A stretch of DNA of 64,000 nucleotides, taken from the IMG/VR virus record IMGVR_UViG_3300033121_001642, positions 1 through 64,000 of that record; one strand, given 5' to 3'. Below the pieces are notes generated by a model, which saw only the letters and a program-made list of their open reading frames with translations, was not told the origin of the DNA and ran no database searches. How positions within the stretch are numbered: the first letter of the stretch is position 1; every line of letters begins with the position of its first letter. Origin of the DNA: a virus. Lineage: Duplodnaviria; Heunggongvirae; Uroviricota; Caudoviricetes. The position numbers and the translations under genes are program-made. Of the stretch, positions 6,704-40,720 are shown one piece after another.

Positions 6704-7585
6704 ATGAATTGGTATAAATTATCCAACGGATTTGTTATAGAAGGCCCTTTTGACGGTAGCGGGCATATGACATCTGACGATCCGTCCATTATCTTTGAAG
6801 CAAAAATAGGCAAAGAGTCTATTGGCTATATTCTTGTTGTTATGCCAAAAAACAAGAACCCTTATGTTGGTCAAGTTACTGTTAAACCAGAAAATAGGCT
6901 AAATGGAGTTGCTACGGCTTTGTATAATAGAGTTGATTATTATTTACGAGAAAACGGTATTTTGCCATTAAATCCGTCTAGAGACCTATCTCCTGGTAGT
7001 CGTAGAATTTGGGATAAGAGATTAGGCAAAGGGATTGGCAAAGAAAGCCAAAGACTTTCTCCGCAACAAATCAATTTATATCATAATTTCAAATCGCCGT
7101 CTGGCGTTAAGCTTATTGGCAGCGGGGTGAGCGCTATTTTTCAAGTTCCAGGCATAAATCAAACACTCAACGGCGCTCAGCTTATGAATCAAGTTATTGG
7201 AAGAATACAAAAAGTTCTTGTACAAAATAATGTTCACACTATAGATACAAGTCCCGTCTCCCGATCTGACGCTATCGGTTTGGCTATTAGTTCTGAACCT
7301 GGAATCATTCATGTTGATATAGCAAAAATATTTAATACGATCAAAAATCAAGCTTTACCCTCTATTACTCAGCTTGATGGCGTAGAGGTTGATAAAGATA
7401 TTCAAAATGATATAATTGATAAAATTTCAAACTATATAACAAATCAATTGGCAAACACCACGGCGCATGAATCAAAACATAATATGGATTATTTTAATAG
7501 TTTTCCAAAAGGTCGGTTTGAATCTTCTGAAAGCGGTGCAGAGGGTTTTGGTAATCAAATTTCAAATCAATATTTCAAACTATGA
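6704..7585 (+). CDS. hypothetical protein, N-terminus MNWYKLSNGF; possible GNAT-like fold (VTVKPENRLNGVATALYNRV)
   Basis: ORF; GNAT motif-A-like R-x-x-G-x-A; WY start. Confidence 0.6.
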   Translation: MNWYKLSNGFVIEGPFDGSGHMTSDDPSIIFEAKIGKESIGYILVVMPKNKNPYVGQVTVKPENRLNGVATALYNRVDYYLRENGILPLNPSRDLSPGSRRIWDKRLGKGIGKESQRLSPQQINLYHNFKSPSGVKLIGSGVSAIFQVPGINQTLNGAQLMNQVIGRIQKVLVQNNVHTIDTSPVSRSDAIGLAISSEPGIIHVDIAKIFNTIKNQALPSITQLDGVEVDKDIQNDIIDKISNYITNQLANTTAHESKHNMDYFNSFPKGRFESSESGAEGFGNQISNQYFKL

Positions 7586-10500
7586 ACTGGTATTACGATC
7601 AAATTATTAAAGAAAGCGCAATGGGAGACAATTCTGTTGAAGCTTTTCTTGCGCGAATTGGAGTTCCCGAAGAAACAATAAGTTATGTTACAACCATAAC
7701 AAACCCAGAGTTGAAGCAGCAAGTTGTTGGTTATTTGCGCAAGTTCCCTCAAACTCCTTCGGTATTGTTGATGGACAAACTTAGGCCGCAAAATCAACCT
7801 CAGCAAAACCCAAATACTCCTCAAGAAGTTCAACTTGCCAATAGGTTTCAGAACCTTGAGTTTCAGAAGTGGTTACTTGTTGCTTTGAGAAAAGCAAGAA
7901 ATGAATATCAGATCAAAAAGAAGCCTGACGGCATTGCTCTTACAGGAGACGGATATTCAATTCCAGGTCGAGGAAATGTCAACTTTACTTTGATACCAGA
8001 TATTGCTCAGAGTATATTTGACTGGTATGTAAGAGGCGTTCTTCCTGCAAGGCAAGCTTTTCAAGCTGCTCAAACACCAGAAGAGCAGGCTGTTGTTGTC
8101 AACGAATACGGTGTAACGAATGCAAATACCAACCTTGCTGGGCTAACGCTTGACCAAGCGGATCGGTTTGCAGAAAACTGGCATGATGTTATTTCTGGAG
8201 AAGGCGAAGGGCTTGAATATTACGGCGAAAAAAGAGAAGACATAGTATATGGCCCTCAATGGAGTAGACCAGAATGGGCTGGTTGGACAATTAAACAAGT
8301 TGTAACAAAGAACAACCTAAGAACTGAAGGCGGCAAGATGGGACATTGTTTTGCTGAAGGTTCTTTAATAAGAACCAAAAAAGGATTTATTCCTATTGAA
8401 GATATAGAAACAGGAGATTTTGTTCTTGTTGAAGATGGAAGTTTTCAAAAAGTAACAGAAAAATTTGAAAGAGAATATAATGGAGAAATTATAAAATTAG
8501 AAACAAGACTTGGGGTTGAACCTGTTTTTGTTACGCCAGAACACTTGTTTTTATCCTTAAAATCAAACCATAAAGGCAACAAATCTTGTAAACTTCATAC
8601 TTGCGGATCATTGTGCAGAAATAATAAACCAGAAGAAAAACACAATATTGAATGGCAACCTATTGAGTCCTTAAAAGATTCGTATATTTTATCCAGAATT
8701 CCAAAAGAGTTCGAAGATATAAATGAACTTATCATACCTAATCATTGTATTGTAAACAAATCAAAAGGCGATAAAAAATACAAATGCGATAAAGATTTAT
8801 TGTGGATTTTTGGCATATACATAGCAGAAGGATCAAATGACGGTGATAAACTCAGTTTTGCTCTTGCAAAAAAAGAAACAGACTATGCTAATAAAATAAT
8901 ATCTTTCTTCTCAAAGGCGGGATTTTCTGCTCGTATAAGAAAAGATAAAGAAAATTACGGCGGTCTTGTTGTTTTAGTAAATAGTAGAATGCTGTGCAGG
9001 TGGTTCTCTGAAATGTTTGGATGTGGTTGTAATAATAAAAAAATACCCTCAAAATTACTTAATTTACCTAATGATAAGATTTTTCATATTTGGCAAGGAA
9101 TATTTGACGGCGATGGATGTAAAAACAGAAACATATTACATCAAACCTCAAAAGAACTTGCTCTACAAATGACAGAGATATCTCTTAGGCTTGGTGGTTT
9201 GCCTTCTTTGTCAAGAAAAGATAATAGCAAAAGAAACAGAAAAACAGCATATGTTCTTGAAGGAGCAGATGCTAGAGTTGAAAGAAATTCTCGGAAAAAA
9301 CACTTTTGGATACACAAAAAAGAAGTTTTAGTAAAACCAATTTGCCATGAAAAAGTAAATTTTAAAGGCAAAGTTTACAACATAGAGGTCGAAGGTATCC
9401 ATTCTTATGTTGTTCAGCACCTTGTTGCTCATAATTGCGTCGGAAGCTATTGCGACGATGTTTTGAAAGGTAATACGAGAATTTTCTCGCTTCGAGACCC
9501 GTCTAATACTCCGTATGTAACGATGGAAGTTGACCCTAAAAGCTGGACTTTTAGACAAATTTATGGCGACGGGCCTAAAACAGGAAACGTTGAGCCAAGC
9601 GACAACTCAAAAGCGATGATTGGCGAGTGGATGAAGACTCTTAAGGGCGCTTCTATTGAGGGCATGAATGACTTTGATTACAGCGATCTTAGTTACGGAA
9701 GCATGGACGACGATCTTGAAAGAGCTATATACAAAGGAGCAGAAGGTTATGGCTTGCCCATTTCTCTTACGGGATGGGAGTATCAAGACGCATACGAAGC
9801 TGTTTACAACAAGCTCAATAATGACCGAGGATATCGCAATGACGGCGGATATCAAACGCATCATGTTTCAAAGGTTCTAGCTAGAGCCGCTGTTGACTCT
9901 GATATACAAAAACTAAACGAAGGGCTTATTGATGAAGCTCGAATGAAAAAGATAGCGCTAGATTGGGCGCATAAGACTCCAAAGCATCATGTTATGAAGA
10001 AAGAGCATTTTGACAGAATGACTCCTGAAAACAAAAGAGAGTATCTGAAGGAATATTTACCAGAAGCTGCCGCTTCAGTTAAAAGAGAAACAGATCAAGC
10101 TCTAAAAGACAAATGGCAAGGATGGGAAAGATATACGAGTCCTCAAGCTGTTGAACAAAAGACGCTTGAAAGGGCTTATTACAATATGAGTCAGGCTAAA
10201 GAGTTTGATTATTCCAAGCTAAAAAGCTTTGATCAACTAGACGAGAAGAATCAAAAAAGGTTTATGGCTCAAGTTCTTGACGCTCAATTTCAAATTGCGC
10301 AAATTTATGAAAAGCGGCAAGAAAACGACGAAAATTTCTACGATTATTATAATGATGATTATTTAGAGCTTCCAGAAGAGCCCGTGGAAGATGACTTTTC
10401 AGATCCCGAAGAATATCAAAAAGCTGTAAGCGAATGGGAAGACGAAAGGCAAAGAATTGAAGACGAAGCCGCCGACTCTCATAGGAAGGAAAACCTTCCA

Positions 10501-11457
10501 TATTGTCTTGACGACGCCGTTATAGAAGACGTTGAAAAAACTCTCATGCAAACTCAGATTAAGCTACCAAGATGGTTTAGTAAATACTTCAACAAGAAAC
10601 AAGATAATAGAAGTCATTATCCAACAATACTTTGGACTCTTGAGGGGATTGCTCGTAAAAAGAAGGAAGCGATCAAAGGGAAAAAGAAACGAAGAGCAAG
10701 CGGTTGGTATAATATTTGTAAGTTTTCAGAGTCTTTTTTAGTTAAAAAAGTGACAGATATTTATGCCATTACTTTTGACCAAGCAAAAAGAAGCGACCTA
10801 ATTGAGGACGGAAACAAGTTTAAATCTAACGGTTCTTATACTTTTGTTGATGATAGTAAAATGATTTGCAGGGACGAAGATTATAATATGTGGGTCGAAG
10901 ACGTTTCTGATTTTGATAAAAGATACAAAATTAAAGACGGCAAAAAGAAACAAATCAGGAGTCCTTTCAAGGAAGGTTTTTGGCAGAGATACGAACCAAC
11001 AGAAAATGCAAAAAATATTGTTGAAGAAGTTTCTGAAGACGAAGTTTTATTAAAAGAAGATAAAAACAACGGAGACGAATGGGAAATAACCATAGAAGAG
11101 TATGGAAAAAACTACAAGAAAGCGAATGGAGGGTTTTCGCCGGACGAGACCAAGAGCAATATAGAGATTGAAGATTCAGAGTGCATCAACAATCATCGTT
11201 GGCGATCAGACATGATCATGCGAGGTTACGACACTCAAACGAACGAGCTTGTTGGGCAACTGAGCTATAGTGTATTTGGCAACGAGTTGCATATTAGCAT
11301 GATTGAAATTGTTCCAAAATACCGAAGGCAGGGGGTTGGGACTCTTTTGATTAAAAAGATGAAAGAAGAAAATCCTGGCTTAGTAATAAAGCCGGGCCTC
11401 ATGACAAATGACGGCTACTCTTTCTTTAGAGCTTTAAAACGCAGAAGAGTCATATAA
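7582..11457 (+). CDS. large hypothetical protein (1291 aa including intein), N-terminus MNWYYDQII; LAGLIDADG intein inserted after ..EGGKMGH; C-terminal GNAT-like acetyltransferase motif (IVPKYRRQGVGTLLIKKM); highly charged central region
   Basis: ORF overlaps upstream stop as ATGA; intein blocks and GNAT motif read from translation. Confidence 0.75.
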   Translation: MNWYYDQIIKESAMGDNSVEAFLARIGVPEETISYVTTITNPELKQQVVGYLRKFPQTPSVLLMDKLRPQNQPQQNPNTPQEVQLANRFQNLEFQKWLLVALRKARNEYQIKKKPDGIALTGDGYSIPGRGNVNFTLIPDIAQSIFDWYVRGVLPARQAFQAAQTPEEQAVVVNEYGVTNANTNLAGLTLDQADRFAENWHDVISGEGEGLEYYGEKREDIVYGPQWSRPEWAGWTIKQVVTKNNLRTEGGKMGHCFAEGSLIRTKKGFIPIEDIETGDFVLVEDGSFQKVTEKFEREYNGEIIKLETRLGVEPVFVTPEHLFLSLKSNHKGNKSCKLHTCGSLCRNNKPEEKHNIEWQPIESLKDSYILSRIPKEFEDINELIIPNHCIVNKSKGDKKYKCDKDLLWIFGIYIAEGSNDGDKLSFALAKKETDYANKIISFFSKAGFSARIRKDKENYGGLVVLVNSRMLCRWFSEMFGCGCNNKKIPSKLLNLPNDKIFHIWQGIFDGDGCKNRNILHQTSKELALQMTEISLRLGGLPSLSRKDNSKRNRKTAYVLEGADARVERNSRKKHFWIHKKEVLVKPICHEKVNFKGKVYNIEVEGIHSYVVQHLVAHNCVGSYCDDVLKGNTRIFSLRDPSNTPYVTMEVDPKSWTFRQIYGDGPKTGNVEPSDNSKAMIGEWMKTLKGASIEGMNDFDYSDLSYGSMDDDLERAIYKGAEGYGLPISLTGWEYQDAYEAVYNKLNNDRGYRNDGGYQTHHVSKVLARAAVDSDIQKLNEGLIDEARMKKIALDWAHKTPKHHVMKKEHFDRMTPENKREYLKEYLPEAAASVKRETDQALKDKWQGWERYTSPQAVEQKTLERAYYNMSQAKEFDYSKLKSFDQLDEKNQKRFMAQVLDAQFQIAQIYEKRQENDENFYDYYNDDYLELPEEPVEDDFSDPEEYQKAVSEWEDERQRIEDEAADSHRKENLPYCLDDAVIEDVEKTLMQTQIKLPRWFSKYFNKKQDNRSHYPTILWTLEGIARKKKEAIKGKKKRRASGWYNICKFSESFLVKKVTDIYAITFDQAKRSDLIEDGNKFKSNGSYTFVDDSKMICRDEDYNMWVEDVSDFDKRYKIKDGKKKQIRSPFKEGFWQRYEPTENAKNIVEEVSEDEVLLKEDKNNGDEWEITIEEYGKNYKKANGGFSPDETKSNIEIEDSECINNHRWRSDMIMRGYDTQTNELVGQLSYSVFGNELHISMIEIVPKYRRQGVGTLLIKKMKEENPGLVIKPGLMTNDGYSFFRALKRRRVI
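8347..9435 (+). mobile_element. Intein with LAGLIDADG homing-endonuclease domain (363 aa) inside the 7582..11457 gene
   Basis: Starts CFAEGSLIRTKKGFIPIEDIETGDFVL (block A), LAGLIDADG-like LWIFGIYIAEGS and IWQGIFDGDGCK, ends ..VVQHLVAHN followed by +1 Cys (CVGSY). Confidence 0.8.
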
Positions 11458-11569
11458 GTTCCTATATCCAGGCTACCGAGACCTGTATGGTCTTGTAAAG
11501 AGCAGAGATGCTTTTTATACCTTACGAGAAATCGGAGAAGCGAGGAAAGAGAAACCGGCGAAAACACTC

Positions 11570-11604
11570 AACGCCCATACCTGAAAAGGTTGGGCGTTCT
11601 TTTT
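11570..11604 (+). terminator. rho-independent terminator (8-bp stem AACGCCCA/TGGGCGTT, loop 13 nt, then CTTTTT) after the 7582..11457 gene
   Basis: Read directly from sequence. Confidence 0.7.
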
Positions 11605-11631
11605 GACAGTTCTTCTGTCACCCGCTATAAA
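11603..11631 (+). promoter_or_regulatory. sigma70-type promoter TTGACA-N17-TATAAA driving the high-GC AAA+ gene; implies a ~165-nt 5' leader
   Basis: TTGACA 11603-11608, 17-nt spacer, TATAAA 11626-11631. Confidence 0.6.
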
Positions 11632-11801
11632 GCCTAGAGCGATTTCAAAGACACGAATAATCGAAAAGATTCTTTTCATTTCCACACGCAAGGTTTTCTT
11701 TGCTTTGCTTGGGGTGCTATTCTTCTGTCAGTTGGGTCGAAGAGTTTCGGCCCCAAAACTTTCTAATCCGCGATTGCGGAGAAAAATGAGGTAAGAAACG
11801 T

Positions 11802-13418
11802 ATGGCTATCACTCCAAAGGCAAAGAAGACGGAACTTCAGGAGAATCCTTTTCAGGACGTTCAGGTTGAGCGTTCTGGCAAGCTGATTACTCTTCCCAGC
11901 GATCCTCGCGACATGGAGATTCAGGAGGCGATTGAAGCTCTTCGCGGCGTTCAGGCCGACGAAGAGGCCGAAACGTCAATCAATCACGAGATTGAGTGCT
12001 TCCCTCTCGACGGTCTTGTGAACTTCAATCGAGCCTGTCTTGAGGAGTTTGGCATCGCTATCGGTACTCCAACTCCCGGCTTCTGGGGTCCGACTCCTCC
12101 AACCATGATGACGGTTCCGATTGGCTATAACACCAAAACGCAGGTTCCCTGGGGAAGCATCAGTTTTCCTCAGTTGAAGGATAGTCGTCTTGAGACGATT
12201 GTTCCTGGCAAGGGTAACACCAAGCCCAAGTTCATCATTGGCGGCGAAGTTCTGAAGAAGTATCAAAAGCAGGTTCAATCCATTGCGGCTCGTACCGAGA
12301 AAAATCTTCGCGAGAAGAGCATTTACAAGGGCAAGGCCATCAAGGTTTCGTTTGCTTGGATGCGAGAGAGTCGCGACTTCCATCCAACGAACGACGCCCC
12401 AACCTTCCTGGATGTTTCCAACGCTCGCAAGGACAACCTTATTTTCGGCAAGGAAGTTGCTGATCTCATCCAGACTGGTCTGTTCTCTGCAATTGAGAAG
12501 ACGAAATCATTCCGCGAGTTTGGTATTCCTCTCAAGCGCGGCGTTCTGCTCACTGGTCCTTACGGTTGCGGTAAGACCTTGACCGCTTATACGACGGCCA
12601 AGATTTGCGAAGACAACGGCTGGACGTTCATGTATGTCTCGAACGTTGAAGACCTGCCGATTGCTCTGAAGTACGCCAAGCTGTACTCGCCCTGCGTCAT
12701 CTTCGCTGAGGACGTTGATATCGCAACCAACGGGCCTCGCAGCACTCAGTTGAACGAGTTGCTGAACACCATCGACGGCGCTGATTACAAGGATGCTGAG
12801 ATCATCACGATCTTGACGACCAATCACGCCGAGAACATCAATCGCGCCTTCCTTCGTCCTGGTCGTATCGACACGGTTATTCCTGTCGAGCCGCCTGACC
12901 GCGAAGCAACAATGCGTTTGATTAAGAATTATGGTGGCGAGTTGCTTGCTGACGGCACGGACCTGAATCCTGCCGCCGAGTTCTTGGCTGGTCAGATTCC
13001 GGCGACCATCCGAGAGTGCGTTGAGCGAAGCAAGATTTCGGCTCTCACTCGCACAAGCAACATCACTGGTCAGGTTACGAGCGAAGACCTCATCATTGCT
13101 ATGAAGGGCATGGAACCTCATATGCGACTCCTCAACGGGGCCAAGACTGGCGACGGTCCTTCGGTTATGGAGGTTGGCCTCGCCTGCTTGGGCGCTGGTA
13201 TCGGTCGCGGCATTGCTGCAACGGGCGGAGCAAACCTGCCTCCTGTTCTCAAGCAGATTGCTGACATGGCCGTTACTGAGACGCTCATGAAGTTCCTTCA
13301 GGTCGCTAACACTGACGGCTCTGGTCAGTCCTTCAAGAGCGCTGAGGATGTCAAGAAGGCGGGTCTCAACCTGAATGGTGTCAAGGCTCCTCCGATTGGC
13401 GCTGTCGCCAAGGCCTAA
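11802..13418 (+). CDS. AAA+ ATPase (classic-clade AAA domain: Walker A GPYGCGKT, Walker B VIFAEDVD, second region of homology), ~230-aa N-domain, Gly/Ala-rich C-tail; markedly GC-rich (~53%) relative to neighbours; paralog of 39374..40720
   Basis: Motifs read from translation; RBS GAGGT 9 nt upstream; flanked by own promoter and terminators. Confidence 0.8.
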   Translation: MAITPKAKKTELQENPFQDVQVERSGKLITLPSDPRDMEIQEAIEALRGVQADEEAETSINHEIECFPLDGLVNFNRACLEEFGIAIGTPTPGFWGPTPPTMMTVPIGYNTKTQVPWGSISFPQLKDSRLETIVPGKGNTKPKFIIGGEVLKKYQKQVQSIAARTEKNLREKSIYKGKAIKVSFAWMRESRDFHPTNDAPTFLDVSNARKDNLIFGKEVADLIQTGLFSAIEKTKSFREFGIPLKRGVLLTGPYGCGKTLTAYTTAKICEDNGWTFMYVSNVEDLPIALKYAKLYSPCVIFAEDVDIATNGPRSTQLNELLNTIDGADYKDAEIITILTTNHAENINRAFLRPGRIDTVIPVEPPDREATMRLIKNYGGELLADGTDLNPAAEFLAGQIPATIRECVERSKISALTRTSNITGQVTSEDLIIAMKGMEPHMRLLNGAKTGDGPSVMEVGLACLGAGIGRGIAATGGANLPPVLKQIADMAVTETLMKFLQVANTDGSGQSFKSAEDVKKAGLNLNGVKAPPIGAVAKA

Positions 13419-13468
13419 TCACCAAAACCCTTGTATAAGTTGACGGAGTAGTCCGTTCTTCTTATCTC

Positions 13469-13510
13469 AGCCGCCGGTTTGACCTTCGGGTTGGACCGGC
13501 GGTTTTTCTT
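13469..13510 (+). terminator. rho-independent terminator (imperfect stem CCGCCGGT..ACCGGCGG, then TTTTTCTTT)
   Basis: Read directly. Confidence 0.65.
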
Positions 13511-13575
13511 TGCGCGAAAATTTGCCGATTTCAAAGGTAGAGAGTCTTTTAATTCAGGAAGGATAGAAGGTTTTT

Positions 13576-13605
13576 TTGCGGAAATATAGACAGGGATACT
13601 ATAAT
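13576..13605 (+). promoter_or_regulatory. candidate promoter with consensus -10 TATAAT (13600-13605) and weak -35 TTGCGG; gives a near-leaderless transcript for the 13620 gene
   Basis: TATAAT 14 nt upstream of ATG 13620. Confidence 0.5.
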
Positions 13606-13619
13606 TTTTGGGAAAACTA

Positions 13620-16412
13620 ATGAGTTGGTATAGCATAATCAGGTCAATGATAAAGGTTGCAGGACCAAAGGAAAAGATACAGAAGTACGGAGTCACAGAC
13701 CCCGCTCTTCAGCTTCTTATTATGCGCTATGAGGGGATGATTAAGTGGAACGGCTATACCGTTGAAGGCAAAAACGAGGCCGGAGAAGATACTCAAGTCC
13801 AAAAGTCAATTGAGAACCAAAACGATATCAATGATTTTATCAAGGCTGTTTTACTACCAAAAGTCTTTGCTAAAGTAGATCAAAACAATCCAAATAACAA
13901 CTATATAAAAAAGTTTGATGTTGAAGCGGGTTATAACTTTGCTAGACAGAACAACATATTCAATCCCGAACTTGAACACGCCTATAATATGTCTAAGCAT
14001 GACAAGGAAGGCGCTGAAAAGTTTTATGTAGGCGTTATCAACAACATTAAGAAGCAAGCGTTTGACGGTTGGATAACCTACGTCAAAGACCATCCTGATT
14101 ATTCGAGTAGCCCTGCTTTCGTTTATCTTCTTTTGAATCCTGTATTTGACAGTTCAGGTCCAAAGACTATCAATCCGGCTCCGACCGCCTCTCCTCCTGT
14201 TATTGCTCAAATATTTCAAAAAGTCAAGAACGTAAAGTTCAAATACAACGGTCCAATCAAAGACGAGAATGTTTTCAAGAAGGTTTTGTCTCTTGCAAAG
14301 GAAGGCAAACCCATTGACCAGATTGCTCAGGAACTAAACCTTCCGCCAGAACAAGTTCAAGACGCTATAAGTCAAAATAACTCTCGCAACATTGATATAT
14401 TCAAAGACTATGAGAAGAATCTTATTGAACACAGTCTTTCTGTTGCCAAGCAGGGGTATAACGAAGTTGAAAAAAGCGGCTGGTTAAAACTTCCAAGTAA
14501 AGATAAAACAAAAGACGGCGTTGACAAAGACGGCAAACCAATATCCGCTGAGAAAGTTTTCGAAAACAATGTTGAAATACTTCATAACTTCTCGGTTCCG
14601 AATGCCTGGTGTACAACCAGACATAGTAACGGGCCGAGATATCTTAGCGCTGGTGATTTTTGGATATTAGTTGAAAACGGTAAAGCAAATGTTGGTATTC
14701 GTTTTAGCGGCGAAAACATTGTTGAGATTGCAGGCGATCAAAGCTATGCAGGCGGAGTAAGCCGTTCTTGTCCAACAGCTTATTGGCGAGAAATTACAGA
14801 CATTATTTACAGAGAAGGTCTTGAGCCTAAGATTACAGATTATGCTAAAACTCACTGGGACCAAATTCTTAAAGAAGCAAATCTTAATAAGAGCTTTTTC
14901 AACGACGACGGAACTCCAAATCTTGAAGAGATTGAAGAGTTTAGGAAAATGCTTCTTAATAATCCTGCTCTCTATAACAGAGTTACAGAGAACGATAAGT
15001 TTGCTCAATATCCTCAGCTTCTAGAGGGGCTTCAAACAGCATGTAAAGAAGGTTGGTTCAAAAAAGTTCAGAACCTTAGCGGAAACGACGCTCTTCAGAT
15101 GGCTGAGAATGTTGCAGCCAACGCTCAGAACATGCCTGAGTTCGTTCTTAGAGATCCGGCTTTCATGGAAAACGTTCACGGAAGACTCACGGCTCTTTAT
15201 GAAAACAGCCCTGATCGTATTAGAAATGTTCTTGAGAAGGTTCCTAATCACTGGAGAGATTATCCAAGAGGTAAAGAGGTCTTCAAACACGCTGTCCTTA
15301 GAAAGTATCAAGAAGGTCTTTATTGGAAAGCAAATGTTTTTAGCGCTAGCAGAAAAACCAAAGAGCAAAAGGGCAGGATTGCCACTGCCAAGATCGAATA
15401 TGACGCTCTTCAGCAGGTAATTGGCGACTTATTACCAGAGCTTCACGCAGATAAGGATTTTGAACAAGCTATTAATGTCGCTAAGAACCAAAGCGCTGAA
15501 GTTGCGGCCAAAGAAGGCTATATTGCTGTTGACACCCCAAGACCTGTTATTGATAGAATTTTTGCAGATCCTGCCAACGTTGAGGAAATGGCTGAAAAAT
15601 ATGCTGATAAAATAAGTAAAGCTCATTTAGAGCCTCATTCTAGACAAACAGAGACTTCGGTTCTTCTTGACTCTTACATGGACTCAGAGTTCTTAGCAAT
15701 TGCCCCTCTTTGGGTTAGAAAAACACCTGGTTTCCAGAACTTTATAAATCTTACAAAGAAAAAGGTTCTCATTAAGAGCGTTCACAACTTTCCAAGTTTT
15801 GATCCTCGCTACAAAGAAGATCCTGAACTTTATCAAATGTATAAAGATTATATTCTAGCTAATGATCCTCTTAAAAAGAAACTCGTTGGCAAAGATAAGA
15901 TTGATCCAAGACTTTTGGATGACAAAGACTATCAAGCGGCGGTTGGCAATTTCGATCAAGGCGTTGATCAGGTTCTTAAGACAATGAAGTGGAGAGCTTC
16001 TGTATATCTAACTCTTCCGCCTCAGGTTCAAGAGAATCCACAGGTTGTTGAAGCGTATATACAATCAAGGGTTTATTCCACAAACATGAACTTTCAAAAC
16101 GCTTTGGCTAAGGAGTTTCCTCAATTACCCGAGTTTTTGAAAGAAAATCCAGTTATTCAACAAAAATATCTTGAAGTTGTTAAGAGGCTTATGAGAACAG
16201 CAATGCCTGGAGATAAGGCGAACTATATAAATTGCAACGAGCTTGATATCATTGCGGCTCAAGACCATGAAATTGTCGAGATGTGTAATAAAAGAAATAC
16301 TCCCTTCAATTTTCCTGTTATTGAAGACGTTGATAACGAAGATCAAGGAATGGATTTCCCGCAAAAAAATGCCTCTAAAGGATGGTATAGGAAAGCGGCT
16401 ACAACATATTGA
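13620..16412 (+). CDS. large hypothetical protein (~930 aa), N-terminus MSWYSIIRS, C-terminus ..KGWYRKAATTY
   Basis: ORF 13608 uses a TTG start; ATG 13620 fits the promoter and the WY motif; no recognisable domain. Confidence 0.7.
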   Translation: MSWYSIIRSMIKVAGPKEKIQKYGVTDPALQLLIMRYEGMIKWNGYTVEGKNEAGEDTQVQKSIENQNDINDFIKAVLLPKVFAKVDQNNPNNNYIKKFDVEAGYNFARQNNIFNPELEHAYNMSKHDKEGAEKFYVGVINNIKKQAFDGWITYVKDHPDYSSSPAFVYLLLNPVFDSSGPKTINPAPTASPPVIAQIFQKVKNVKFKYNGPIKDENVFKKVLSLAKEGKPIDQIAQELNLPPEQVQDAISQNNSRNIDIFKDYEKNLIEHSLSVAKQGYNEVEKSGWLKLPSKDKTKDGVDKDGKPISAEKVFENNVEILHNFSVPNAWCTTRHSNGPRYLSAGDFWILVENGKANVGIRFSGENIVEIAGDQSYAGGVSRSCPTAYWREITDIIYREGLEPKITDYAKTHWDQILKEANLNKSFFNDDGTPNLEEIEEFRKMLLNNPALYNRVTENDKFAQYPQLLEGLQTACKEGWFKKVQNLSGNDALQMAENVAANAQNMPEFVLRDPAFMENVHGRLTALYENSPDRIRNVLEKVPNHWRDYPRGKEVFKHAVLRKYQEGLYWKANVFSASRKTKEQKGRIATAKIEYDALQQVIGDLLPELHADKDFEQAINVAKNQSAEVAAKEGYIAVDTPRPVIDRIFADPANVEEMAEKYADKISKAHLEPHSRQTETSVLLDSYMDSEFLAIAPLWVRKTPGFQNFINLTKKKVLIKSVHNFPSFDPRYKEDPELYQMYKDYILANDPLKKKLVGKDKIDPRLLDDKDYQAAVGNFDQGVDQVLKTMKWRASVYLTLPPQVQENPQVVEAYIQSRVYSTNMNFQNALAKEFPQLPEFLKENPVIQQKYLEVVKRLMRTAMPGDKANYINCNELDIIAAQDHEIVEMCNKRNTPFNFPVIEDVDNEDQGMDFPQKNASKGWYRKAATTY

Positions 16413-21019: not shown

Positions 21020-21490
21020 ATGAAAATGTTCGTTACAGAAAAAGAAGCAGCAGACCAGCTTGGATTACCTGTTTCAAAAGTTCACCAACTTGGTGAAGAC
21101 GGTGTTTTCCAGCAATTCATAGATAAAGATATAACGCTATTCAAACAAGAGCAGGTTGACTTGTACAAAGAATCAGAAGAGTACAGAAACCTCTCTGACA
21201 AAGGCGCTGTCTTTGTCCCTCAAAAAGATTACTATGGAAGCGCAACACTGATTATGTTCAGCTTTTGCGCCTTAGTTTTCCTGGTTTCTGTTTTTGCTCG
21301 CCGTCCGCAATTGCTTGAGTTTGTTGTTCCTCCATTAGCCTTGGTGGGACTTGTTTGTTTAGGCCTCAACCTTCTCAAGCATTACAAGGATAAAGAGCAA
21401 AAGAGAAAAGCCGCAGAAACAGCCGCAGAAACTGATCGAGTTCTCGATCAGATTGACAGACTGCAAAGGCAGTCGGAAAGAAAGAGATGA
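21020..21490 (+). CDS. N-terminal HTH (excisionase/MerR-like) DNA-binding domain + two TM helices + charged coiled-coil tail
   Basis: EKEAADQLGLPVSKVHQLGEDG HTH; hydrophobic segments ATLIMFSFCALVFLVSVF and VVPPLALVGLVCLGL. Confidence 0.55.
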   Translation: MKMFVTEKEAADQLGLPVSKVHQLGEDGVFQQFIDKDITLFKQEQVDLYKESEEYRNLSDKGAVFVPQKDYYGSATLIMFSFCALVFLVSVFARRPQLLEFVVPPLALVGLVCLGLNLLKHYKDKEQKRKAAETAAETDRVLDQIDRLQRQSERKR

Positions 21491-22740
21491 GTTATAGAAA
21501 TTCAGGAGCAAATTCGATGAGTCAATTCCCCGTTAAACTTGCTATTTCAGGCGTTATTGGTGTTGGTCTTCTTTTGGGTGGTGTTACCCTTTTTGACCTC
21601 GAAACCGTTGCCGGTAGCGAGGTTGGCGTCAAAGAAACCTGGAGCGGCGTTGATCCCAACCCGCTTCCTCCTGGAACCTATTCCAGAAACCGAATGACGA
21701 CCAACATCTATCGCTACGACATGACGAGCAGAGTTTTCGTCATGAACGATGCGCCTCCTACTTCTGGTGAAACTGGTAAAGGCAGAGACTATGACGCTTA
21801 TCTTGTTCAGTCGCAAGACCAGCAAGACATGCACATCAACCTCAGCGTTCGCTGGAGATTTGATCAGCCTAGCATTATCAACATCCACAAGAACTATCAC
21901 GCCCACATGGACGCTGATGACCCAAACATTATCGAAGAGCGCCTTCTTCGTAATACCGTTCAGTTGGTTGTCAAGAATCACGCAACAAAGATGAAGGCAA
22001 CCGAAGCCTACTCTGGCGAAGGTCTTGTTAGATTGCAAACAGAGATTGAGCAGGATCTCGCTTCTCCCGACAGTGAGCTTCGCAAGCAGGGCGTCATTGT
22101 TGAGAACTTCGTAATCGAGAAGATTGCTCTTGATCCTAACTATGTTGCTGAAATCAAGGCTCGTCAGATTGCTCAGCAAAAGAAACTTCGCGCTGATGAA
22201 GAAGCCAAGGCCGCTGAAGCTGAAGCGCTTAAGGTAAGAGCAGTTGCTCAGGCGGACCTCAATAAGGCGGTTGTTGAGGCTGAAAGAGACAAAGAAGTTG
22301 CCAAACTCAAGGCCGAACAGGTCGCCGCCGCAACCTTAACCGCTGCTGAAGCGCAGAAGAAGCAAACAATCTTAGCTGCTGAGGCTGAGGCCGAAAGATT
22401 GAAGATTGCATCTGAGGCTGAGAAGGCGGCTGCCGAGAACAGAGCATCTGCTGTCCTTGCTGAGGGTCGCGCCAAGGCCGAAGCTCAAAAGCTTCTCTAT
22501 GCGGCTTATGAGGGTATTGGCGGTCAAACCTTTGCTCAGATTGAGATTTCTCGAAACATGGGTTCTGCATTCCAGAACTTCAATGGCTTCCTCCCTCAGA
22601 ACATGAGCTTTACCTCTCTGTCTGGCGACTTCATGGGTGCTATCAGAACGGCTCTTGGCCAGCCTTCTGCTCGTCCTAATACTCCTACCAACGCTTCAAC
22701 AACGGCTCCTGCAACGATGCTCGTTCCTTCAGGTAAGTAA
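21487..22740 (+). CDS. SPFH/band-7 (prohibitin/HflK-like) membrane protein with long Ala/Glu/Lys coiled-coil
   Basis: N-terminal TM; SPFH core; EIKARQIAQQKKLRADEEAKAAEAEALK.. repeats. Confidence 0.75.
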   Translation: MSYRNSGANSMSQFPVKLAISGVIGVGLLLGGVTLFDLETVAGSEVGVKETWSGVDPNPLPPGTYSRNRMTTNIYRYDMTSRVFVMNDAPPTSGETGKGRDYDAYLVQSQDQQDMHINLSVRWRFDQPSIINIHKNYHAHMDADDPNIIEERLLRNTVQLVVKNHATKMKATEAYSGEGLVRLQTEIEQDLASPDSELRKQGVIVENFVIEKIALDPNYVAEIKARQIAQQKKLRADEEAKAAEAEALKVRAVAQADLNKAVVEAERDKEVAKLKAEQVAAATLTAAEAQKKQTILAAEAEAERLKIASEAEKAAAENRASAVLAEGRAKAEAQKLLYAAYEGIGGQTFAQIEISRNMGSAFQNFNGFLPQNMSFTSLSGDFMGAIRTALGQPSARPNTPTNASTTAPATMLVPSGK

Positions 22741-23235: not shown

Positions 23236-24246
23236 ATGCTCAAAATTCGGTCACTAGAACTATCAAACTACGCAGGTTTCAATAAGCGAAGCGTTTTTAG
23301 ATTTACATATAACAACGGTTCTTATAAGCCTCTTTGCGTATTCTTTGGACCAAATGGTTGCGGAAAGAGTACAGGTCTTAATGCTATCGCTGTCCTTTCT
23401 AGAGCCAAAGCGTATTCAAAAAGAAAGAAAGACGAGGAAAACCTGCTTCTAAGGAAGATGCAATTTCATCCAGATTACGATCCAAACTATGCTGGTTTTA
23501 CAAAGTACAAAGAAGATATGGAAATGATTGCTATATTTGAAAACCAGGTTGGCGAAGAGCTTATTGTTCATATCAAAGACGACGATGTTATAAGAAACGA
23601 TCTTGCAAGTCTTGGCTCTGAAAACGTTGTTTTCATTGACGCAGACCATCCTATAAACAATAACAAGTTTCAAATACCGTCCGAGAGAATTGAACTTTTT
23701 CTTGAACTTGCAGAGGCGATATACGGATATAAATGCTTTGTTGAAAAACCTGTCTCGGCTACAGGTGTTGAAGCAGGTAGCGACTCTCTCAAAGAAATCA
23801 TAAGCGTTTATGCGAATAACTATGAAGCTATTACTTCTTCTGAATCCAAACCTACGGTTTCAAAAGAAGAGATTTACTCTCATCTTTCCGACCATAAAAA
23901 GGCCGAACTTTCATTCTACCAGGATTTTGTAATTCAAAAGGGAGAAGTTAAGGTTCATTATAAGTCAATGAGCGCAGGCGAGAAGAAAATCGCAACACTT
24001 CTTAGAAATCTTTGCGACCCTGCTGTTATTGACAAAAGCGACATTGTTCTGGTTGATAATATAGAGATGCATGTATATTTCAAGAGGCATGTAAAAATGC
24101 TAGAGAAGATACTGGAAAAGTTTCCAACTAAACAGTTTATTGTGACAACTCATAGTAGTCTTATGATTGATCACGTGAAAAGTAAGTTTGGAGATAGCTG
24201 TCTATTCGATATACCAATCATCAAGGGTCAGCCTCTTGTTGATTGA
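23236..24246 (+). CDS. ABC-type (AAA_21/SMC-like) ATPase
   Basis: Walker A GPNGCGKST; signature-like SAGEKK; Walker B IVLVDNIEMH; H-loop TTHS. Confidence 0.8.
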   Translation: MLKIRSLELSNYAGFNKRSVFRFTYNNGSYKPLCVFFGPNGCGKSTGLNAIAVLSRAKAYSKRKKDEENLLLRKMQFHPDYDPNYAGFTKYKEDMEMIAIFENQVGEELIVHIKDDDVIRNDLASLGSENVVFIDADHPINNNKFQIPSERIELFLELAEAIYGYKCFVEKPVSATGVEAGSDSLKEIISVYANNYEAITSSESKPTVSKEEIYSHLSDHKKAELSFYQDFVIQKGEVKVHYKSMSAGEKKIATLLRNLCDPAVIDKSDIVLVDNIEMHVYFKRHVKMLEKILEKFPTKQFIVTTHSSLMIDHVKSKFGDSCLFDIPIIKGQPLVD

Positions 24247-34810: not shown

Positions 34811-34907
34811 ATCAGCCTAAATATAACGGACTGCTTTCGAATACAAAGATAGTGCTTTTGTAGTCTTGTATACTTGATTGTAGTTGACACAAAGAAGGAG
34901 TCAATTG

Positions 34908-35717
34908 ATGATTAGTGAAGAATCAGTTAGAGATAAGTGGGAAGAGTTTGTTATAATTCGCAAGAACAAACAAGATCCACATTATATAAAAGCAAGAAAT
35001 TCCTTACTTGAGATTTATTATCCACTCGTAACAAAAGTGGCAGAGAGAATGCACAAGAAGATAAGAGAAGTCGATATCGACGACCTTGTTGCTTGGGGCA
35101 CGGACGGTTTGTTTCATGCTGTTGAAAGGTTTGACCCGTCTCTCAAGAATAAGTTCGAAACCTTTGCAATACATCGCATAAAAGGTTCTATTCTTGACAA
35201 TATTCGTCAGGTTGATTGGGTTCCACGTCTTGTTAGACAGCGATATTCTAAAATACAAAAAGCGAAACAAGTTCTTGAATCAGAACTTGGACGAACTCCA
35301 ATCCACGAAGAGGTTGCCGAGTATATGGGTATATCGCTAGATGAGTATATAGAGATTAGCTCAAAAGCTACTCCGGTAAGCTGTATTAGCATGAATGCTG
35401 GTCGTTCTGAAGATTCTGATTCAGGGGAAGAAATACAAATAGAAAGCATAATAATCAATTCAGAAAAACCAGACAACAACGTTCTTCGTGAAGAGATGTT
35501 CAAGAAACTCATGGGTAAGAATTTTATTCCTCTTGAGAGAAAAATCATTCACATGCACTACTACAACAATATGACGATGAAAGAAATTGCAAAAGAGACT
35601 GGTTACAGCGAATCCAGGATTAGCCAGATGCATTCAAAAATTCTTGAACGATTGCAAAGAAAAGTAAAGCTCAACCCCAACTACATGAAGGGTCTTGAGG
35701 CTATACTTCAGTCTTGA
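34908..35717 (+). CDS. sigma-70 family sigma factor (group 3/4-like; regions 2, 3 and 4 present)
   Basis: Region 2 LVAWGTDGLFHAVERFDP..FETFAIHRIKGSILD; region 4 HTH MTMKEIAKETGYSESRISQMHSKILERL; AAGGAG RBS. Confidence 0.85.
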   Translation: MISEESVRDKWEEFVIIRKNKQDPHYIKARNSLLEIYYPLVTKVAERMHKKIREVDIDDLVAWGTDGLFHAVERFDPSLKNKFETFAIHRIKGSILDNIRQVDWVPRLVRQRYSKIQKAKQVLESELGRTPIHEEVAEYMGISLDEYIEISSKATPVSCISMNAGRSEDSDSGEEIQIESIIINSEKPDNNVLREEMFKKLMGKNFIPLERKIIHMHYYNNMTMKEIAKETGYSESRISQMHSKILERLQRKVKLNPNYMKGLEAILQS

Positions 35718-38217: not shown

Positions 38218-39372
38218 ATGAACGAACAACAAACAGAAAGTAACAGATTCATTATTGACACTAAAGCTGTCGAGAAGTTTTTGTCTATTCTCGATAAAAA
38301 TGATGATATTTCAATTATTTGCCACGACCAACCAGATCCCGATTGTCTTGCTTCGGCTTTTGCTATTCAGGCTCTTGCTCAATCAAGAGGTAAAAATGCT
38401 GTCATTTATTATGGCGGAGAAATTCCATATACTCAAAACAGCGTCATGATGAATGTTCTTAACATTTCAGCGATTAAGCTAGAGGTTGACGAGGATAATG
38501 AAGAGGAAGAATTAACTCAACAAATAAAAGACAATATTAAGAAAAGCTCCATTATCGTCGTTGATACGAGCGCTGGTTTTGGAAAAGAAAATAATACCGG
38601 GATCTTTGGCTTTCTTGAAAAAGATAGGAAGCCAGACGCCATTATAGATCATCACACAACAAGTCCTTATGTAGACTGTCCTGTGTATATAAACAAGCAG
38701 TACGGCGCTTGTTCGACCATATTGCTTGAAATATTGACGGTATTGGATATTCCAATAAATAAAGGTCTTGCAACGGCTCTCTATCTTGGTATTTCGACCG
38801 ATACTGCGGATCTTAAATCAGAAGGAACCATGCAGAATGATATTGACGCAATGGACTTTCTCAGATCCATCATGGATGTTGAGCTTCTTAGAAAAATTTA
38901 TGACTATCCAAAACCCCTTGCGTTGCTTGAGCTTAGAAGAAAAGCATATTCAAATTTTTGTATTAGCGGCAACAATTTGACCATATCAAACGTTGGTATT
39001 GTTAATCCTCAACAAAGAGCTTTGCTTGCGAAACTTTGCGAAGAAATGCTTGAGGTTGAATCAATAGATAGTGCCCTTGTTATGGGGCTTGTTGACGAAG
39101 GATTTGATAAGCCTAAGTTTTTGATAGCGTCTTTCAGAACAGGGGTTCTTGGTATCAATGTTTCTCAGTTCATTCAAAAGATATTTGGTAAAAAATATGG
39201 CGGCGGACGGCGTGGAGCCGGCGCAGCAAAAGTTCCTCTTGACGATAAGATATCTTCAGTGATTGATTTTGCAAAAAGGCAGGAAAACGGAGTTGCTCGT
39301 ATTGAGCAACTTGTTGCTCCCTTTTTTGAATATTACGCCGACAAGGCGAGAACAGAAAAGAGTAACATATAA
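38218..39372 (+). CDS. DHH/DHHA1 phosphoesterase (NrnA-like)
   Basis: Motif I CHDQPDPDCLAS; DTS; IDHH; DHHA1 GGGRRGAGAA. Confidence 0.75.
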   Translation: MNEQQTESNRFIIDTKAVEKFLSILDKNDDISIICHDQPDPDCLASAFAIQALAQSRGKNAVIYYGGEIPYTQNSVMMNVLNISAIKLEVDEDNEEEELTQQIKDNIKKSSIIVVDTSAGFGKENNTGIFGFLEKDRKPDAIIDHHTTSPYVDCPVYINKQYGACSTILLEILTVLDIPINKGLATALYLGISTDTADLKSEGTMQNDIDAMDFLRSIMDVELLRKIYDYPKPLALLELRRKAYSNFCISGNNLTISNVGIVNPQQRALLAKLCEEMLEVESIDSALVMGLVDEGFDKPKFLIASFRTGVLGINVSQFIQKIFGKKYGGGRRGAGAAKVPLDDKISSVIDFAKRQENGVARIEQLVAPFFEYYADKARTEKSNI

Positions 39373-39373
39373 T

Positions 39374-40720
39374 ATGGATATATCTAAGATCCCCCTTAAG
39401 GACTCAACGTTATTAGAGTTTGCCCATGCATTAATGGCCGCTGAAGGAGACTCCTTTAGAGATAACTACATTAACAATTTTTTCGGAGATACCAAAAAAA
39501 GAACCTCCATTAATTCTGAGGCGATTTCGCCTTATGAACATAGAAAAATACAGGCTATTTGGCAGGAATTCTTCAATAAAGAAGAATGGACGCTAACTGA
39601 ACAGTGCGATTTTTCTTATACAGCAAAAACGCCTGTTGTGAAGTTTGATATAGAAACATCTCCTGACGAATACATTAAAGGCTACAGAGAGGGTTGCCTT
39701 TTTTATAAGAAAGGAAGAAGCAAGCTTTGTGTTCAAATCGTGAGAAATCCCGGAAGAGAAGAATACTCTTATATTATAACAACTTCTGAGACAGATAGTA
39801 AACTGTTGCAAGATCTTAAAAAATATGCTTCTGAGAATAACCTCTATAAGGGTAAGAAGATTGACTGTAGAGGTAATTTTTTAAAGCTCGATAATGTTTC
39901 TTGGGAAGATATTATTCTTCCAGAAAAAACAAAACAAGTTGTTAGGTCTAATATAGAAGAGAATTTCGCCTTAAGAGAGACATTCAAGAAATACGGACTC
40001 TCAGTTAAGAGAGGCATTATTCTTCATGGGGTTCCCGGAACTGGTAAGACAAAGATTTGCAAATGTCTCGCAAGAGAGTCGGGATATAGCGTTCTGTACG
40101 CCTTGCCCTCTGATTTCCCTAATCCAAATTCTATTTCTAGAGTTTGTGAAATAGCAAAAGACCTTGCCCCTTGTCTTCTTATAATTGAAGATATTGATTG
40201 GATTGCTTCTGATAGAGCGAAGGGTGGTTCCGCATTCGTTATGGAGCTTATGAATAAGCTTGACGGTCTTGAATCTTTTGGTGATATTATAACGCTCGGA
40301 ACCACAAATGCTCTTGGAGAGCTTGAGAATGCTATTAAGAATCGACCGGGAAGATTTGATAGAATTATAAGCGTTGATAAGCCCGACGAAGAATGTCGAG
40401 CAAAAATGCTTCTTAAGTTTACAGATAAGTTTGTTGTATCTAAAGCTGTTGATTTTAAAAAACTCGCGTCAGTAACTAGAGGTCTAACTGGCGCTCATAT
40501 GAATGATCTCTGTTTAACTGCTGCCATATTTGCGGTCAAAGATTCTTCTTTTGAAGGAGAAAAACTCCTTCTTGAAAAGAAGCATTTTGATAAAGCAATT
40601 AAGGAAACAAAAGATAAAGATTATTCTACCTATATGGAACAACAAAGCAAGAATAAGGCCATTGGTTTTGCGCAAATGCAGAACCCCCTGTTTGGTGATT
40701 TTTTAGATGATGATTTCTAA
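39374..40720 (+). CDS. AAA+ ATPase, low-GC paralog of 11802..13418
   Basis: ILHGVPGTGKT; LLIIEDIDW; second region of homology NRPGRFDRI; N-domain alignable to the other AAA gene (YKGK..I / KRGxxLxGxxGxGKT). Confidence 0.8.
   Translation: MDISKIPLKDSTLLEFAHALMAAEGDSFRDNYINNFFGDTKKRTSINSEAISPYEHRKIQAIWQEFFNKEEWTLTEQCDFSYTAKTPVVKFDIETSPDEYIKGYREGCLFYKKGRSKLCVQIVRNPGREEYSYIITTSETDSKLLQDLKKYASENNLYKGKKIDCRGNFLKLDNVSWEDIILPEKTKQVVRSNIEENFALRETFKKYGLSVKRGIILHGVPGTGKTKICKCLARESGYSVLYALPSDFPNPNSISRVCEIAKDLAPCLLIIEDIDWIASDRAKGGSAFVMELMNKLDGLESFGDIITLGTTNALGELENAIKNRPGRFDRIISVDKPDEECRAKMLLKFTDKFVVSKAVDFKKLASVTRGLTGAHMNDLCLTAAIFAVKDSSFEGEKLLLEKKHFDKAIKETKDKDYSTYMEQQSKNKAIGFAQMQNPLFGDFLDDDF

Follow-up and report, generated by a model that had tools for sequence, protein, structure and literature searches.

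The 64,000-nucleotide stretch of DNA analysed here (positions 1 to 64,000 of the IMG/VR virus record IMGVR_UViG_3300033121_001642, a member of the Caudoviricetes; hereafter the window) contains a gene for an AAA+ ATPase that forms a sharp island of high guanine plus cytosine (GC) content in an AT-rich genome, and the question that it raises is how one gene has come to differ so much from its surroundings. The original prediction had left two causes open, acquisition from a higher-GC source or the tuning of codons for expression at a very high level; codon usage, synteny and relatives speak against the former and in favour of the latter. Our best explanation, to which we give a probability of about three in four, is that the island is a monocistronic unit, that it was vertically inherited and that its composition results from codon selection.

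Sliding-window analysis of composition placed a GC plateau of 50–59% at ~11.75 to 13.5 kb, against 39.7% for the 64-kb window overall, and the position of the plateau is that of an open reading frame (ORF) of 538 codons on the plus strand (11802..13418). The composition of the window is thus not uniform and the predicted island is real: at 53.4% GC (0.534, compared with 0.397), the gene is the maximum among all 1617-nt sliding windows. Compared with the 40 other ORFs of the window, the gene has a GC content with z = +4.2, a GC content at third codon positions (GC3) of 0.614 (mean 0.354, z = +4.7) and a frequency of A at third positions (A3) of 0.072 (mean 0.283, z = −4.6), whereas the corresponding frequency of T (T3), at 0.314 (mean 0.363, z = −1.0), is unchanged. 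Third positions hold approximately two thirds of the GC excess; the values for the first and second positions (GC1 0.56 and GC2 0.43) are also higher than is usual in the window, and the protein is enriched in Ala, Gly, Pro and Thr. The leader and the intergenic DNA beside the gene have a GC content of ~43–44%, which is near that of the flanking genes and well below the 53% of the gene itself. The asymmetry of the shift, with A3 collapsing and T3 being kept, makes a donor of 53% GC unlikely, because such a donor would lower A3 and T3 together.

The same asymmetry is seen codon by codon. The gene has no ATA, AGA, AGG, CTA, TTA or GTA codons at all, the codons AAA, CAA and GGA make up only 8, 12 and 4% of their synonymous sets, and AAG (92%), CAG (88%) and CGC plus CGT (78%) are favoured, but the T-ending preferences of the genome are retained (GTT 72%, GCT 47% and CCT 53%). 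In the rest of the window, ATA accounts for 34% of Ile codons and AGA plus AGG for 73% of Arg codons. The rare-codon set occurs 7 times per 1000 codons in the gene, compared with 114 for the remainder of the window and 113 for a second AAA+ gene (39263..40720), and the effective number of codons (Nc) of the island gene lies 14.7 below that expected from GC3 only. One gene in the window departs further, by −19, namely a gene for an SPFH/Band 7 protein (21487..22740, plus strand; GC 0.495, GC3 0.476), which lies outside the transcription unit of the AAA+ gene and forms a second, weaker GC peak at 21–23 kb. The codon deviations of these two genes, whose sequences are unrelated, are correlated (r = 0.75, p = 2e-11), and the use of one set of preferred codons by both indicates a property of the translation system. 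The second AAA+ gene provides an internal control, its codon usage being ordinary and its deviations uncorrelated with those of the first (r = −0.09). We regard codon selection, rather than transfer, as the probable cause of the rise in GC.

Comparison with related loci bears directly on inheritance. The gene occupies the same syntenic slot, in the same orientation, in five relatives (L001, L002, L004, L011 and L012); in relatives at 94, 87, 72 and 66% identity, this slot lies 3′ of large, mostly PcfJ-like, proteins and 5′ of an SNF2 helicase. Its divergence is congruent with that of its surroundings, or smaller, the protein identity being ~88% against 85–90% for the flanks in L001 and 66–73% against 37–68% in L002 and L004, and the gene ranks among the most conserved of its block. 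No repeats beyond short chance ones, no integrase or mobility genes and no other mobile-element boundary were seen at its borders, and a tRNA scan of the window found none. The closest homologues all come from related huge phages and none from GC-rich genomes. With the gene present at the syntenic site in relatives, repeats and tRNA genes absent and T3 unchanged, the locus lacks the features that define a genomic island, and we conclude that the gene is vertically inherited and that no GC-rich donor supplied it. The contigs that carry close homologues measure 333, 477, 488, 495, 498 and 502 kb, from which it follows that the window itself belongs to a huge phage; one contig of 333,623 bp, IMGVR_UViG_3300033067_001661, has a copy of the gene with 94% identity. 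A megablast search with 25 kb of the window against the phages in GenBank gave no match, so that the phage does not correspond to a deposited isolate. The ‘Jug’ huge gut phages (PMC12880540) were rejected as its source, having a GC content of 27–30% and an ‘ATPase’ that is a P-type Ca pump.

The shift in composition is itself shared by the orthologues. In relatives that are 87, 72, 66 and 58% identical (L001, L002, L004 and L005), with backgrounds of 35–48% GC, the GC3 of the homologue exceeds that of its neighbours by approximately +0.15 to +0.3 and its A3 is 0.07–0.15, and the GC3 shift scales with the GC content of each genome. As synonymous sites are only 68% identical between the window and L001, at a protein identity of 87%, the retention of an undrifted relic of transfer is implausible. 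The locus in L005, on a contig of 477 kb, is differently arranged: the gene (10001–11587) is the sole plus-strand gene among ~30 minus-strand genes and its neighbours encode a PARP, a SpoU methylase and two-component proteins, while its GC3 is still 0.72. This different context indicates that the AAA+ gene, as an autonomous cassette, has relocated at least once.

The bias extends to the whole family, which corresponds to phrog_10440. A scan of IMG/VR returned 80 loci with a homologue, and we used the 60 that had at least five other long ORFs. The GC3 of the homologue lay above the median of its neighbours at 58 of these loci (97%), while its A3 was lower than theirs at 95% and its Nc lower at 90%. 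It was the most codon-biased ORF (Nc rank 1) at 22 loci, against a chance expectation of 5.0, and was among the top two at 43; the homologue was the highest-GC ORF at 22 loci, including nearly every locus below 46% GC. Cultured phages follow the same pattern, with Nc values of 30.3 for ORF048 of Pseudomonas phage KPP25 (GC3 0.84) and 33.8 for gp37 of Escherichia phage Pollock. The codon adaptation index (CAI) of Pollock gp37, calculated with the E. coli w-table of Sharp & Li 1987, was 0.546, the highest of the 47 genes scored (median near 0.26) and above those of the major head protein (0.475) and SSB (0.455), which suggests that the bias is aimed at host-optimal codons; in this gene, most of the total-GC excess lies at codon positions 1 and 2. 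The island in the window is, then, the form that a family-wide codon optimisation takes in an AT-rich genome. Translational codon selection in highly expressed phage genes is established (PMC5683454), and the AAA+ gene has its hallmarks, namely a bias that goes beyond composition and that is conserved in orthologues, with a direction that, by analogy with Pollock, would be host-optimal. The protein is probably very abundant, as judged by this bias. Literature searches found no expression or function data specific to members of phrog_10440.

The two intrinsic terminators that had been predicted to bracket the gene are both well supported, by fold stability and by conservation with stem covariation. 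The upstream one (11570..11604, plus strand), which would end the transcript of the preceding PcfJ/GNAT gene, consists of a bulged stem (11570–11598) followed by CUUUUU and folds with −18.3 kcal/mol (z = −3.66); it is conserved in L001, L011 and L013, with a double change from A-U to G-C in the stem in L001 and L011. The downstream one (13469..13510, plus strand) is a strong terminator that was also matched by the scanner, with a 16-bp stem, a UUCG-type loop and a U-tract; its fold (13469–13504 plus the U-tract) has −28.1 kcal/mol (z = −4.9), and its position is kept in L001, L002 and L004, where the stems differ in sequence, remain self-complementary and co-vary.

Because the gene lies between two terminators, some promoter must lie within 11605–11790. 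The strong, near-consensus promoter proposed earlier is there as a sequence, TTGACA-N17-TATAAA (11603..11631, plus strand) being the sole exact match in the 64 kb, where chance alone would give 0.04, but its standing as a strong promoter is less secure. Its −10 hexamer ends in A, not in the conserved T, with the result that a sigma-70 scanner rejects the site, and its −35 is unconserved even in the relatives at 94% identity; the match is specific to the lineage of the window. The surrounding promoter segment is ~71% identical to that of L001, near the level of synonymous sites (68%), and cannot be aligned in L012 and more distant relatives. An exact 11-nt direct repeat, TTCTTCTGTCA, occurs in the spacer of this promoter (11610–11620) and again 110 nt downstream (11720–11730); of the two copies, relatives conserve the downstream one alone.

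That downstream copy lies in a conserved non-coding block of 44 nt (11693..11736, plus strand; GTTTTCTT..TTGG..GCTATTnTTCT..GTCAGTTGGG), which carries an extended −10-like element, TGcTATTCT, at 11715–11723. All four close relatives have the block, even L012, in which the sequence upstream is otherwise unrelated, and together with two hairpins and the ribosome-binding region it is ~98% conserved in L001, compared with 68% for synonymous sites. A motif search for a recurrent phage promoter found a single copy of it in the window. The block may act as the core promoter or, alternatively, as an element of the leader. Consensus folding of the leaders of four relatives with RNAalifold gave one hairpin at 11734..11753, in which pairs are kept through one-sided (wobble) changes only, and another at 11767..11780, directly 5′ of the ribosome-binding site, in which the stem CCGC/GCGG is kept and the length of the loop varies (both plus strand); among the 13 pairs there were 0 compensatory changes. 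The minimum free energy of the leader was not unusually low compared with shuffled sequence (z = −0.99) and a scan of 11300–13800 against Rfam at E ≤ 1 gave no match, so that neither a riboswitch nor the structured leader of ~165 nt, as put forward from inspection of the sequence, was supported by folding or by family search.

The translation-initiation region (11786..11804, plus strand; TGAGGTAAGAA-N-ATG), with the Shine–Dalgarno sequence GAGG at 11788–11791 and the ATG at 11802, is invariant in close relatives and recognisable in relatives down to 62% identity. A mini-ORF of three codons (ATG-AGG-TAA, 11786–11794) overlaps the Shine–Dalgarno sequence and is likewise invariant in close relatives (ATGAGGTAAGAA), which may reflect constraint on the ribosome-binding site. 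On the other side of the gene, the intergenic region 13434–13633 is 94% identical to that of L001, compared with 68% at synonymous sites, and contains a perfect TATAAT (13600–13605) ~14 nt before the ATG of the next gene at 13620, which suggests that the leader of that gene is very short or absent.

The predicted identity of the product as an AAA+ ATPase was confirmed by Pfam, PF00004 matching aa 248–362 with 58.2 bits (gathering cut-off 21.2), and the best family assignment is phrog_10440 (E = 2.3e-110, 370 bits, aa 19–448 on positions 14–439 of the 483 in the profile). An AlphaFold2 model (confidence score, pLDDT, 82) divides the protein into a family-specific N-terminal α+β domain (aa 1–212; 11802..12437), a single classical-clade AAA module with its lid (aa ~217–445; 12450..13136), which contains Walker A, Walker B, sensor-1 and RPGRxD motifs, and a Gly/Ala-rich helical C-terminal tail of low confidence (aa 446–538; 13137..13415; pLDDT 36–67). 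The protein shares 37–43% identity with homologues from uncultured huge phages and from phages of 63–76 kb (Schitoviridae such as Pollock, and the Kochitakasuvirus KPP25). Across 41 sequences, Gly252, Gly255, Gly257, Lys258 and Thr259 of the Walker A motif (GPYGCGKT, 252–259) are invariant, as are Asn341 of sensor-1 and the arginines Arg352 and Arg355 (RPGRID) of the second region of homology. From these intact motifs – Walker A, sensor-1 and arginine fingers – the protein is predicted to bind ATP and to oligomerise.

Two other motifs are atypical. The Walker B segment reads VIFAEDVD rather than hhhhDE, such that Glu303 aligns with the Walker B Asp of AFG2 and Asp304 with its catalytic Glu, and this ‘ED’ order is invariant across the phrog_10440 family and is also found in the paralogue in the window. 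Pore loop 1 (aromatic-hydrophobic-Gly) is absent, the protein having a gap relative to AFG2 at the 10 residues that bear this loop in AFG2 and Cdc48, and the gap is the same in all aligned homologues; in the AlphaFold2 model, strand β2 (275–279) is followed two residues later by a helix (282–294), leaving almost no room between β2 and α2. The absence of pore loop 1, together with the ‘ED’ Walker B, would make a remodeller or scaffold likelier than a processive threading unfoldase or protease. Conservation of the helix of the C-terminal tail, MEVGLACLGAGIGRGIAATGG, is restricted to the huge-phage clade, and the Pollock and KPP25 homologues lack this helix, which might bind a membrane or a partner. 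An analysis of conserved neighbours at 65 loci found no partner gene at more than six of them.

None of the more specific labels that we tried could be applied to the protein. Curated NCBIfam AAA models scored 35–64 bits against cut-offs of 500–1008 and matched the AAA module only. An FtsH or metalloprotease assignment fails on score (TIGR01241, 60 bits against 600; PRK10733, 35 against 1008) and on content, there being no Pfam match to Peptidase_M41; a Cdc48/p97/VAT assignment fails because the tandem D1–D2 modules and the double-psi-barrel N-domain are absent, and that to PAN has only a sub-threshold match to the AAA module. Among defence ATPases in PADLOC, the IetA and TRIP13 models gave partial matches to the AAA module (~24–49 bits), with no conserved neighbour in the 65 loci, and the IteA model of NCBIfam gave 41 bits against a cut-off of 510; no PADLOC or anti-defence family matched the protein above threshold. 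A pairing of AAA+ and SPFH proteins in the manner of FtsH with HflK/C was set aside, as the AAA+ protein has no transmembrane anchor or protease domain and the syntenic region of L004 lacks an SPFH gene. The two AAA+ genes of the window are not recent paralogues, being 24% identical and differing in codon usage and in their best PHROG matches, which for the second gene are phrog_30773 and phrog_3757. Homologues in GenBank are labelled ‘Cell division protein FtsH’, ‘ATP-dependent zinc metalloprotease’, ‘metalloprotease’, ‘DNA helicase activity protein’, ‘cell division protein’ or hypothetical; none of these labels is backed by domain content, and those of FtsH and metalloprotease are wrong.

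Taken together, the island would be one monocistronic unit, made up of a terminator, a promoter region, a leader of roughly 70–165 nt, the gene and a second terminator, in which selection of long standing among synonymous codons, favouring fast or plentiful translation, would have raised the GC content as a by-product. A-ending and rare codons (ATA, AGA, AGG, CTA, TTA, GTA, GGA, AAA, CAA and GAA) would have been replaced by codons ending in C, G or T, with a lesser share of the GC coming from an amino-acid usage rich in Ala, Gly and Pro; in an AT-rich phage such selection would appear as a GC island and in GC-rich relatives as the lowest Nc and highest GC3 locally. The protein would be made in very large amounts, at or above the level of capsid protein, and, to judge from its motifs, may be a stoichiometric, nucleotide-switched remodeller, scaffold or sequestering factor that holds its target through the N-domain. 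A broader and much more tentative proposal, which we think unlikely, is that the proteins of phrog_10440 form a widely distributed class of AAA+ proteins that are very abundant and do not thread their substrates, which may range from podoviruses of 63–76 kb (including N4-like Schitoviridae) to huge phages of 500 kb, and which would act near-stoichiometrically to sequester or remodel a host factor or as an intracellular scaffold early in infection; in the huge-phage clade, the host RNA polymerase would transcribe the gene as a self-standing cassette, with codons adapted to the tRNAs of the host and with counter-defence genes as neighbours. Several points weigh against selection for abundant, host-optimal translation and against the function proposed. 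The homologue in LR756511 is little biased, and two of the 60 loci are without the bias; for every member of the family, high expression is a prediction from codon bias. ‘Host-optimal’ applies to the gene in the window only by analogy with Pollock in E. coli, and no capsid gene was identified in the window that could serve as a within-genome benchmark of a known abundant protein. The −35 of the consensus promoter is not kept in relatives, being TTAGCG or TTGGCG at 94% identity and TTGGTG at 87%, and what the loss of the pore loop and the ‘ED’ Walker B would mean for mechanism is drawn from motifs and a predicted model.

Other explanations of the island have to be weighed against selection for abundant translation. 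Were the unit a cassette recently acquired from a phage or bacterium of ~53% GC, with a composition that had not yet drifted, the sharp GC step would be expected to match a self-contained, terminator-bracketed unit, as it does, and both the restriction of the consensus promoter to the lineage of the window and the isolated plus-strand homologue in L005, which must have moved at least once on a long timescale, would fit; we nevertheless regard such a transfer as highly improbable, given a shared locus and orientation in five relatives with congruent divergence, borders free of repeats, integrase and tRNA genes, closest homologues in related huge phages rather than in GC-rich genomes, an unchanged T3 with the genome's own T-ending preferences, a shift that scales with the background GC of each relative and an unrelated SPFH gene with the same codon set. 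Nor does it seem at all likely that the excess arose without codon selection, from an amino-acid composition rich in Ala, Gly and Pro or from a local bias of mutation or recombination, such as GC-biased gene conversion. The raised GC1 and GC2, the enrichment of Ala, Gly, Pro and Thr and the predominance of positions 1 and 2 in the total-GC excess of Pollock would all suit that origin, but approximately two thirds of the excess in the window gene is at third positions, its Nc is far below the GC3-only expectation, and the adjacent leader and intergenic DNA reach only ~43–44% GC. Neither gene conversion nor amino-acid content predicts a change that is asymmetric in strand and base, with a fall in A3 but none in T3, and where the host is known, as for Pollock, the direction fits host-optimal codons.

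Codon selection for something other than bulk abundance is doubtful but deserves more consideration. On this account the gene would be an early counter-defence or takeover gene, with codons selected for translation from host tRNAs as soon as the genome has entered, before phage tRNAs for ATA, AGA and similar codons become available, or for escape of its GC-rich DNA or mRNA from AT-targeted silencing or RNases. The complete avoidance of codons used heavily elsewhere in the phage (ATA, AGA plus AGG) is what such a gene would show, and its neighbours include conflict or ‘polyvalent’ genes (PcfJ-like, GNAT, SNF2 helicase and PtuA-like ATPase, with ART-PolyVal and ParE-like genes in relatives). Furthermore, a sigma factor is encoded in the window, which implies temporal classes of promoter, and only the AAA+ gene has an exact match to the host-type sigma-70 consensus; a precedent is provided by early-entering anti-defence genes in the leading regions of conjugative plasmids, for which a high CAI has been reported (preprint 10.1101/2025.04.03.647016). 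However, the neighbouring putative early genes are not codon-shifted, the sigma-70 match is unconserved in close relatives, there are no tRNA genes within the window and no PADLOC or anti-defence family matched above threshold, and the Pollock homologue lies amid N4-type middle (replication) genes, outside the early region. We therefore favour long-standing selection for abundant translation of a vertically inherited gene.

Several other features of the window were noted. The PcfJ-like/GNAT protein encoded immediately upstream (7582–11457, 1291 aa) contains a Hint plus LAGLIDADG intein at approximately aa 252–620, which is missing from the orthologues of L001 (932 aa) and L011 (802 aa) and so was gained or lost recently; a second intein (Intein_splicing plus LAGLIDADG_3) interrupts the large subunit of ribonucleotide reductase (40774–44421). 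In L004, the corresponding interval from the SNF2 helicase to an SMC-like ATPase contains no gene of the size of the SPFH gene. The SMC/ABC-type ATPase of the window (23236–24246) matches dozens of PADLOC models for PtuA (Septu), AbiL and AriA (E 1e-22 to 1e-10) and is thus a defence-like gene that is phage-encoded and conserved in L004. The sigma factor (34884–35717; phrog_351, E = 2e-35) implies that the phage directs the core RNA polymerase of its host to promoters of its own. An ORF of 3412 aa (45043–55281) has DUF3383, in two stretches, as its sole Pfam match, and the ORFs after it, of 674 and 1410 aa, have no family match.

For annotation, the locus is a clean case of a sharp GC island in a phage that did not arise by horizontal transfer and that composition-based island callers would mislabel; it is the asymmetric loss of A3, the conserved synteny and the same shift in orthologues that separate selection from transfer. 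Translational selection and the AAA superfamily are already known, and what is of moderate interest is how regularly the phrog_10440 gene is the most strongly codon-optimised of its neighbourhood, together with the atypical catalytic and pore motifs of the protein. The analysis points to an uncharacterised and very widespread family of phage AAA+ proteins, often mislabelled in public records, whose codon usage would rank it with the genes that its phages translate most heavily, and in Pollock above that for the capsid protein. As the family has cultivable members, in Pollock (E. coli), KPP25 and Littlefix (Pseudomonas) and Pylas (Klebsiella), its function is directly testable.

Among known systems, the highly expressed genes of phages, such as those for major capsid protein and SSB, likewise depart locally toward host-optimal codons; unlike these, the signal in phrog_10440 is strongest on a non-structural enzyme and is conserved across very different phage groups. 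Genomic islands of atypical GC content likewise show an abrupt GC step of the size of a gene and have regulatory signals of their own, but the AAA+ gene has no boundaries or mobility genes and shows conserved synteny, congruent divergence and an asymmetric, selected shift. In comparison with the classical AAA proteins (Cdc48/p97/VAT D2, AFG2, FtsH, PAN/Mpa, ATAD1/Msp1 and B. subtilis YjoB), the protein is a single module without an M41 protease, a transmembrane anchor or a double-psi-barrel or OB N-domain, its pore loop 1 is deleted and its Walker B reads ED instead of DE. Its nearest counterparts are the other members of phrog_10440, Pollock gp37, KPP25 ORF048 and the proteins of Littlefix, Klebsiella phage Pylas and Erwinia phage phiEaP8, which have in common 37–40% identity over ~80% of the length, the N-domain, the ‘ED’ Walker B, the pore-loop deletion and a tendency to the top codon bias of the neighbourhood. 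From Pollock and KPP25 the huge-phage clade differs in its extra Gly/Ala-rich C-terminal tail of ~90 aa, and its gene is a terminator-bracketed monocistronic unit amid conflict-type genes rather than amid N4-type replication genes.

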